Shown here piece after piece: positions 3,788-3,823 of a stretch of DNA of 15,032 nucleotides. Within the stretch, counting starts at the first letter, position 1; every line of letters begins with the position of its first letter. This DNA comes from a virus (lineage: Duplodnaviria; Heunggongvirae; Uroviricota; Caudoviricetes), in IMG/VR virus record IMGVR_UViG_2563366979_000002, positions 1 to 15,032 of that record; one strand, written 5' to 3'. The notes under the pieces are model-generated. The model searched no databases, was not told the DNA's origin, and saw only the letters and a program-made list of their open reading frames with translations. The translations under genes and the position numbers were made by a program.

Positions 3788-3823
3788 AATAATAACTATC
3801 AGGTTTATCAGATAGTTATTATT
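3788..3823. promoter_or_regulatory. Perfect 13-bp inverted repeat (AATAATAACTATC / GATAGTTATTATT) with a 10-bp spacer, 27 bp upstream of the PerC-like start
   Basis: Arms at 3788-3800 and 3811-3823 are exact reverse complements; the spacer also carries a TATCAG direct repeat; overlaps a plausible -10 (TATTAT) for the minus-strand gene. Confidence 0.45.

Follow-up and report, generated by a model that had tools for sequence, protein, structure and literature searches.

A perfect 13-bp palindrome in the predicted leader of a portable perC cassette found in lambdoid prophages and on P1-like plasmid contigs

The perC locus and its prophage surroundings

The stretch of DNA analyzed in this work (the window; 15,032 nt, positions 1 to 15,032 of the IMG/VR record IMGVR_UViG_2563366979_000002) represents a cryptic lambdoid prophage that occupies the lambda attachment site. 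The ends of the window carry a pectinesterase-family gene (1-1284) and a PEBP-family gene (14556-15032), which we take to be ybhC and ybhB, the pair that flanks attB-lambda in E. coli. A lambda-like int gene is located at 1419-2489. The xis region (2467-2684, minus strand) contains two overlapping ORFs of 47 and 49 aa where related loci have a 72-aa Exc-family gene, and this split is probably a frameshift, consistent with a cryptic prophage. At approximately 4652-4728, a truncated dATP/dGTP-pyrophosphohydrolase-DUF551 gene (125 aa, compared with 217 aa when intact) stands head to head with an SfV-like tail DNA-circulation gene. This is the apparent deletion junction, at which the intervening early and late region is missing; SfV-like tail genes and gtr genes follow the internal deletion. 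In addition, a perfect 13-bp inverted repeat with a 15-nt spacer (CCCTGAAGGAGAA/TTCTCCTTCAGGG), the second of its kind besides the palindrome that is the subject of this work, is located at 11325-11365 between a tail-fibre assembly gene and a convergent gtr-like gene, and may be a bidirectional terminator.

In pathogenic E. coli, virulence islands are regulated by horizontally transferred proteins of the PerC family (PerC, Pch), and to our knowledge little is known of how the expression of these proteins is controlled on mobile elements. The perC gene of the window is labeled as a PerC family transcriptional regulator in NCBI records. Its ATG is at 3761-3759, and it belongs to a cassette that is shared with other mobile elements. 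The features of the cassette are listed below; in the perC sense, position numbers run downward.

3215-3908, minus strand: perC cassette shared by lambdoid prophages and P1-like plasmid contigs (blastn, 93.8% identity)
3462-3761, minus strand: PerC-family gene, 99 aa plus stop (Pfam PF06069, 55.5 bits against a cutoff of 22.6, E=7.2e-15)
3767-3787, minus strand: A/U-rich stretch and Shine-Dalgarno (SD) sequence GGAG (3770-3767), between the palindrome and the ATG; unvarying in all haplotypes
3782-3811, minus strand: weaker alternative promoter, predicted; -35 CTGATA (3811-3806), 18-nt spacer, -10 TAATAT (3787-3782), 6.1 bits
3788-3800, minus strand: ATG-proximal arm of the palindrome, GATAGTTATTATT in the perC sense; 3' arm of the predicted RNA stem; unvarying in 11/11 haplotypes
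3801-3810, minus strand: spacer or loop of 10 nt, TGATAAACCT in the perC sense; 3808 A>T in all P1-like alleles
3811-3823, minus strand: promoter-proximal arm of the palindrome, AATAATAACTATC in the perC sense; 5' arm of the predicted RNA stem; natural variant 3820 A>G in L089-L091
3843-3853, minus strand: third copy of the arm core, GTTATTATTAC in the perC sense; holds the -10 hexamer of the best predicted promoter
3846-3875, minus strand: best sigma-70-like promoter for perC, predicted; -35 TTGAAT (3875-3870), 18-nt spacer, -10 TATTAT (3851-3846)

Several other sequences border on perC. The genuine plus-strand gene of the region is a 55-aa ORF that starts at 3988 and has its own promoter-like site at about 3931-3957. 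This ORF (3988-4152, plus strand, divergent from perC) has a TAA stop at 4045-4047 in the window and a 6-nt deletion relative to the intact copy of E. coli M3 (L073 1551-1718), in which hokD takes the place of perC. It lies within a 238-bp segment (3909-4146) that is missing from the P1-like loci. The palindrome was also considered as a divergent promoter for a 62-aa plus-strand ORF at 3859-4047, which was rejected because that ORF is not conserved. Downstream of perC and still within the shared cassette, a stretch of about 75 nt (3247-3321, minus strand) shows 78.7% nucleotide identity to the C-terminal part of the doc/Fic toxin gene carried by the P1-like contigs (L010 9639-9712), with 8 of 13 aa shared (LFLxRNxxQVY). 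This likeness hints that the stretch is a doc remnant, and that the cassette may have been assembled in a P1-like plasmid.

Geometry and predicted transcription of the palindrome

A repeat search of the window identified an inverted repeat at 3788-3823, AATAATAACTATC-N10-GATAGTTATTATT, with arms of 13+13 nt that are 100% complementary. On the plus strand it reads AATAATAACTATC aggtttatca GATAGTTATTATT, with the arms at 3788-3800 and 3811-3823 and 10 nt between them. Dinucleotide shuffles of the window gave an expected number of 0.015 per window for perfect 13-bp repeats whose spacer is at most 20 nt, and none of 2000 shuffles of the local 900 nt (36% GC) yielded a comparable 13-bp repeat. The palindrome is thus real and non-random, far beyond chance, and the exact 13-bp inverted repeat with a 10-bp spacer described in the initial annotation was borne out by the repeat search and the shuffles (0/2000). 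Other parts of that description need correction. As the gene lies on the minus strand at 3462-3761, the palindrome is 27-62 nt upstream of the perC ATG, and not 27-73 bp as had been given. The nearest candidate -10 (TAATAT, 3787-3782) abuts the left arm, so that the reported overlap with a candidate -10 does not exist. The arm centres are 23 bp apart, about 2.2 helical turns, and the dimer-site geometry of one helical turn is wrong for 13-bp arms. The repeat search also revealed GTAATAATAAC at 3843-3853, a perfect 11-nt complement of 3815-3825 that had been overlooked. The AT-rich core is consequently present in three copies of alternating orientation (3853-3843, 3825-3815, and 3800-3788), whose starts are 28 and 27 nt apart.

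The position of the palindrome relative to transcription depends on which of two predicted promoters is used. TTGAAT-18-TATTAT ranked first in both a consensus scan and a position-weight scan (9/12 consensus matches, 9.2 bits). CTGATA-18-TAATAT was second in the position-weight scan and was not reported by the consensus scan. We favour the former as the predicted perC promoter, because its -10 is unvarying across the haplotypes, while 3808 A>T changes the -35 of its rival in the P1-like alleles. In addition, the TTGA of its -35 is retained in the P1-like allele. The predicted start from this promoter is at about 3839-3841, which gives a leader of approximately 78 nt with the palindrome at about +16 to +51. 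Since the top-scoring predicted promoter lies upstream of the palindrome, the palindrome would be transcribed. These results do not support the earlier placement of the palindrome as an operator over the promoter, for the best sigma-70 match puts it downstream of the predicted start. Of the two predicted core promoters, only the weaker one is overlapped: under CTGATA-18-TAATAT, the -35 and the spacer would fall within the palindrome.

As RNA, the palindrome is predicted to fold into a 13-bp stem with a 10-nt loop (-12.3 kcal/mol, z = -4.6), and none of 200 shuffles was as good. The stem is AU-rich and contains 2 G-C pairs. In the minimum-energy fold of the whole leader, the helix is lengthened by pairing of CCUAU (3838-3834) with AUAGG (3773-3769), the latter holding the two leading G residues of the SD sequence. 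However, the core stem is clear of the SD sequence and the extension is no better than that with shuffled flanks. Because equally stable folds were obtained in 790 of 2000 flank-only shuffles, occlusion of the SD by an extended leader hairpin is unsupported. An RNA thermometer is likewise unsupported, as no opening was predicted from 20 to 42 °C. No match was found among the Rfam 15 covariance models; the only hit had E = 0.39 and reached 17 bits, where the gathering score is 100. A consensus terminator scan did not call the stem as a terminator. With 2 G-C pairs and a 10-nt loop, the structure is not a standard intrinsic terminator, and the U-rich tail (5 of the 8 nt right after the stem) is the single terminator property it has. 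The third copy and the first arm can also form an alternative 11-bp stem (-9.6 kcal/mol).

Distribution and natural variation of the cassette

The arm pattern with any spacer of 6-14 nt was searched for in one genome per species (185,579 species) and in viral contigs. The species genomes yielded 8 matches, all of them in unrelated taxa that are mostly AT-rich, and with other spacers, which we take to be chance matches. The viral contigs yielded 5 matches, every one of them this perC cassette. Apart from the partial third copy, no further copy of the palindrome was present in the window or in the flanks of about 20 kb around 10 loci. A dispersed repeat element (REP, MITE or similar) was therefore rejected, since the arms matched only in the perC cassette or at scattered places in unrelated taxa; the search of these collections for the many unrelated copies that the initial annotation named as refuting revealed no such spread. 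Approximately a dozen other types of PerC-family upstream region contained no comparable palindrome, so the repeat is not a family-wide PerC feature.

The cassette itself was absent from 5,426 complete E. coli RefSeq genomes, PLSDB, and INPHARED. The PerC homologues found in these collections have 65-70% nucleotide identity, and the similarity ends at the start codon. Draft and metagenome assemblies, those of E. marmotae among them, nevertheless contain the exact 99-aa protein, which is indexed in 279 blocks. These results indicate that the perC cassette is a rare yet widely scattered accessory gene. Barring one different phage type, it is always located at the distal end of the lambdoid early-left operon, with the gene order cI, N, erf, ..., dATP/dGTP-pyrophosphohydrolase-DUF551, 29-aa ORF, perC, 55-aa ORF, xis, int. 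Since the cassette has the same orientation as the cI-N-erf-...-DUF551 operon and lies at its distal end, read-through transcripts would include the palindrome. The exception (L080; 77-376 and 10001-10300) is of a different morphotype, in which the cassette lies between the DUF551 and terminase genes and a second, weak PerC-family gene occurs about 10 kb away. In 10 prophage loci, 560 nt (260 nt upstream plus the coding sequence) are 100% identical, and these loci comprise at least four unrelated CI repressor types and several integration sites. A PerC protein of 92% identity was found on contigs of approximately 91 kb with P1-type genes (theta-subunit homologue, S24 peptidase, phd/doc). The arms are unchanged in the P1-like contigs and in one podovirus-like context. 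In the P1-like loci, a separate GC-rich terminator-like hairpin precedes the cassette, suggesting that the cassette is organized as its own transcription unit.

Natural variation was followed in 11 distinct 460-nt haplotypes gathered from members of the PerC protein cluster. Upstream of the -10 (3852-3908), 12 of 57 sites were variable, while the -10 hexamer had none (0/6). At 3824-3845 there were 3 variable sites among 22, all within or beside the third copy, which itself varies at 3853, 3845, and 3843 (3/11 positions). One of 26 sites varied in the palindrome arms, 1/10 in the spacer, 0/21 at 3767-3787, and 22/300 in the coding sequence. The block from the palindrome to the SD sequence (3767-3823) was thus variable at 2/57 nt, compared with 15/85 immediately upstream, a pattern that points to constraint on the leader. 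The sole arm change, 3820 A>G, belongs to a lineage for which the assembly collection has 45 indexed blocks. It converts A-U to G-U in the perC-sense RNA with the energy unchanged (-12.4), and it breaks the symmetry of the DNA. This would fit RNA pairing better than DNA symmetry, although the evidence is thin. Among 7 distinct sequences, 12 stem pairs were unvarying and 1 was changed on one side (A-U to G-U), with 0 compensatory and 0 broken pairs; as no compensatory (double) substitution occurred, real covariation is absent.

A similar picture was obtained when the lambdoid and P1-like alleles were compared. The stretch from the -10 to the SD sequence differed at 1/85 nt, compared with 26/362 in the rest of the cassette including its coding sequence (one-sided Fisher test, p = 0.022, for a region chosen post hoc). 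Between the window gene (3462-3761) and the P1-like gene (L010 6001-6300) there were 8 non-synonymous and 7 synonymous codon differences, and 1 change in the leader, so the PerC protein appears to evolve faster than the leader. For the arms alone, 0/26 changes against about 1.6 expected is not significant (P ~0.2), and the comparison of such close alleles constrains the arms only weakly.

No regulator gene lies inside the cassette. The initial annotation had noted that no cognate regulator is found beside the PerC-like gene, and this agrees with our finding of an identical cassette across at least four CI types. A prophage repressor is excluded as the binder because heteroimmune prophages whose CI proteins are of lambda-cI-like, P22-c2-like, and two further types carry one and the same cassette; the arm half-site is also absent from the immunity regions and 20 kb flanks of the 10 prophage loci. 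Any protein partner must be PerC or a host factor, and to this extent the earlier suggestion of an autoregulated or host-factor site stands. Its autoregulatory part has no positive support, since the structural model of PerC, predicted to be an all-helical, TPR-like fold, gave no HTH or RHH match, and other PerC genes lack the palindrome. A role at the level of RNA would account for the observations no less well. No solved structure of the PerC family was found. The PerC-family protein Pch has been reported to bind the lowest-GC regions within H-NS-bound DNA and to relieve H-NS silencing (PMC4764244), and the text of that report, searched by term, gave no Pch binding consensus, motif or palindrome.

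Host transcription factors were compared by means of 29 consensus sequences (Fur, PhoP, IHF, CRP, FNR, ArcA, Lrp, ArgR, OxyR, MarA, and others), and none of the 29 matches survived multiple testing. The best of these, which are leads rather than tests, were the IHF core WATCARNNNNTTR (9/9 at 3806-3818, 12/500 shuffles), which 3808 A>T disrupts in the P1-like allele, a marbox-like match (13/14 at 3772-3790, 2/500 shuffles), and a PhoP-like direct repeat (10/12 at 3802-3818, 47/500 shuffles). The P1 C1 operator was rejected, with an 11/17 match, 250/500 shuffles as good, and no relevance in lambdoid contexts. In addition, the 10-mer TAATAACTAT recurs unchanged in a distant PerC clade (L022/L023; 55-58% aa identity), at positions -54 to -45 relative to the ATG (L022 2824-2833). 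This sharing was reached in 3/500 shuffles, before correction for nine comparisons, and the upstream regions are otherwise unalignable. The perC homologues of this clade, plasmid and chromosomal, are paired with a divergent HTH gene. In another clade (L020/L021; 59-66% identity), a MarR-family gene follows perC and L021 adds an inverse-autotransporter (intimin-like) gene, an arrangement that suggests a perC-marR-adhesin module.

Possible roles of the palindrome and comparison with known systems

The best explanation, to which we give a probability of roughly 0.4, is that the palindrome is a cis-acting leader RNA stem-loop. The palindrome would be part of the 5' leader of the mRNA of a self-contained perC accessory cassette. 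Transcription from its own promoter (start at about 3840) or read-through from the early-left operon would produce the 13-bp AU-rich stem with its 10-nt loop, separated by about 15 nt from the predicted 5' end and by 27 nt from the AUG downstream, and followed by the unvarying A/U-rich stretch and GGAG. The stem could then set the fate of the mRNA, by stability, processing or modest premature termination, and it could do so without a trans-acting regulator, which would fit a cassette hopping between unrelated mobile elements. We rank this explanation highest because it is partner-free, the palindrome lies downstream of the best promoter and in the most conserved non-coding stretch, and the arm variant keeps the pairing; from the sequences we infer the promoter and start site, the formation of the stem in vivo, and an effect on expression. 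Several points speak against it. A single transition compatible with G-U pairing would arise by chance in roughly 1/4 to 1/3 of cases, selected RNA hairpins seldom have as few as 2 G-C pairs together with a 10-nt loop, and perfect Watson-Crick arms are also expected of a young inverted duplication. If the weaker promoter is real, the palindrome lies outside the mRNA made from the cassette's own promoter. The RNA stem-loop also leaves the third copy over the -10 unexplained unless read-through transcripts matter.

The perfect dyad symmetry and the highly non-random repeat would also suit a DNA operator, a possible but doubtful alternative that we rank second, in which a host protein (IHF, H-NS or a similar nucleoid-associated protein, or an E. 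coli transcription factor) or the PerC-like protein binds the symmetric site. Such a protein could act as a roadblock under the upstream promoter or occlude the -35 and spacer under CTGATA-18-TAATAT, where the palindrome spans -35 to -10, and the third copy, which overlaps the -10 of the best promoter, could be an auxiliary site. The region is very AT-rich, the kind of DNA to which Pch was reported to bind (PMC4764244), the IHF core matches at 9/9, and the L022/L023 clade has TAATAACTAT at a similar distance from the ATG. However, the cassette has no regulator gene and is identical in heteroimmune prophages, its half-site is absent from their immunity regions and 20 kb flanks, and a simple dimer site would not typically have arm centres 23 bp apart. 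No HTH or RHH was matched by the PerC model, which is helical and TPR-like, such palindromes are missing from other PerC genes, none of the 29 consensus sequences withstands correction for multiple testing, and the P1-like allele has lost the intact IHF core. Moreover, the third copy varies at 3/11 positions, and 3820 A>G breaks the symmetry in the 45-block lineage. It is unlikely, in turn, that the palindrome is a young and functionless relic of local direct and inverted duplication (template switching) that made the three 11-13-mer copies. A perfect identity of 13 nt does exceed what protein recognition or RNA pairing needs, the cassette appears young and to spread by recombination (560 nt 100% identical in many contexts), the 0/26 arm changes between the main alleles are not significant against about 1.6 expected (P ~0.2), and other PerC genes manage without a palindrome. 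Against this stand the lower variation of the palindrome-to-SD stretch than of the adjacent upstream DNA and the coding sequence, the pairing-compatible nature of the single arm change, and the divergence of the PerC protein between alleles while the arms did not diverge.

A weak intrinsic terminator or attenuator appears very unlikely. Here the stem and the following UAAUAUUU would halt part of the transcription entering perC, either read-through from the DUF551 operon or perC's own transcripts, and the stem of third copy and first arm could serve as an anti-terminator in read-through transcripts. The 5/8 U past the stem and the ability of the first arm to pair with either the third copy or the second arm are consistent with this, as is the hairpin before the cassette in P1-like loci that marks its own transcription unit. 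The terminator scan made no call, however, the stem has 2 G-C pairs, an A-U-rich base, and a 10-nt loop, and the third copy is poorly conserved and would be untranscribed under the best promoter. There is also a small chance that the three copies form a switch reading the state of the mobile element, or that a PerC-family protein recognizes the palindrome in autoregulation or anti-silencing, which would make it the first sequence-specific DNA target to be defined for this family. In such a switch, own-promoter transcripts, which lack the copy at 3853-3843, would fold the 13-bp stem, while read-through transcripts upon prophage induction, which contain that copy, might fold the 11-bp stem and alter PerC output.

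The palindrome is specific to one portable perC cassette, and it is not a repeat family, a phage-repressor operator, a recognizable terminator or a known RNA family. The cassette combines a promoter, a palindromic leader, and a gene in a compact portable form, carried by many phage backbones and P1-like plasmids. Should the palindrome govern PerC output, it would offer a readily testable case of a moron gene controlled independently of any regulator; should it bind a host protein, it would tie a mobile regulator to the physiology of the host. As a cis-element the palindrome is plausible but of an ordinary kind, and several known systems resemble it in part. The lox and FRT sites share 13-bp perfect inverted arms, a third copy (FRT), and occurrence on P1-like plasmids. 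However, their spacer is 6-8 bp and not 10 bp, the third copy here is 17 bp away in the wrong arrangement, no recombinase accompanies the cassette, and the module boundaries are not at the palindrome. Palindromic repressor operators, which lie at the start site or slightly downstream of it (lac O1 type) or over the -35/-10 (phage operators), are similar in dyad symmetry, in their promoter or leader position, and in a possible auxiliary copy nearby. The palindrome differs from them in having no identifiable cognate repressor and in its long perfect arms with a 10-bp gap and centres 23 bp apart, and it is unlike operator sets in being a unique site: the flanks examined contain no regulon copies.

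The perC cassette (3215-3908) also resembles the moron cassettes of phages, in which an accessory gene with a promoter of its own is inserted between phage genes. It shares with them its own promoter-like sequence, its presence in many unrelated phage backbones, and, in P1-like loci, a terminator-like hairpin ahead of it. It differs from morons in that the consensus scan called no terminator downstream of perC, and the palindrome is additional to the moron definition. With regard to the palindrome as a leader RNA, the lambda N leader contains an RNase III-sensitive hairpin and ompA has a stabilizer hairpin in its 5'-UTR. The palindrome stem is unlike these in being AU-rich and 13 bp long; canonical RNase III cleavage would need a longer stem, such as the statistically unsupported extension would give. 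It also begins some 15 nt inside the predicted 5' end and not at the end itself. Nevertheless, the stem-loops of lambdoid leaders and ompA, like the palindrome, are placed in cis between the promoter and the ribosome-binding site and have no dedicated regulator gene, and the genes with lambdoid early-gene leaders, like perC, lie in the early-left operon or at its end.
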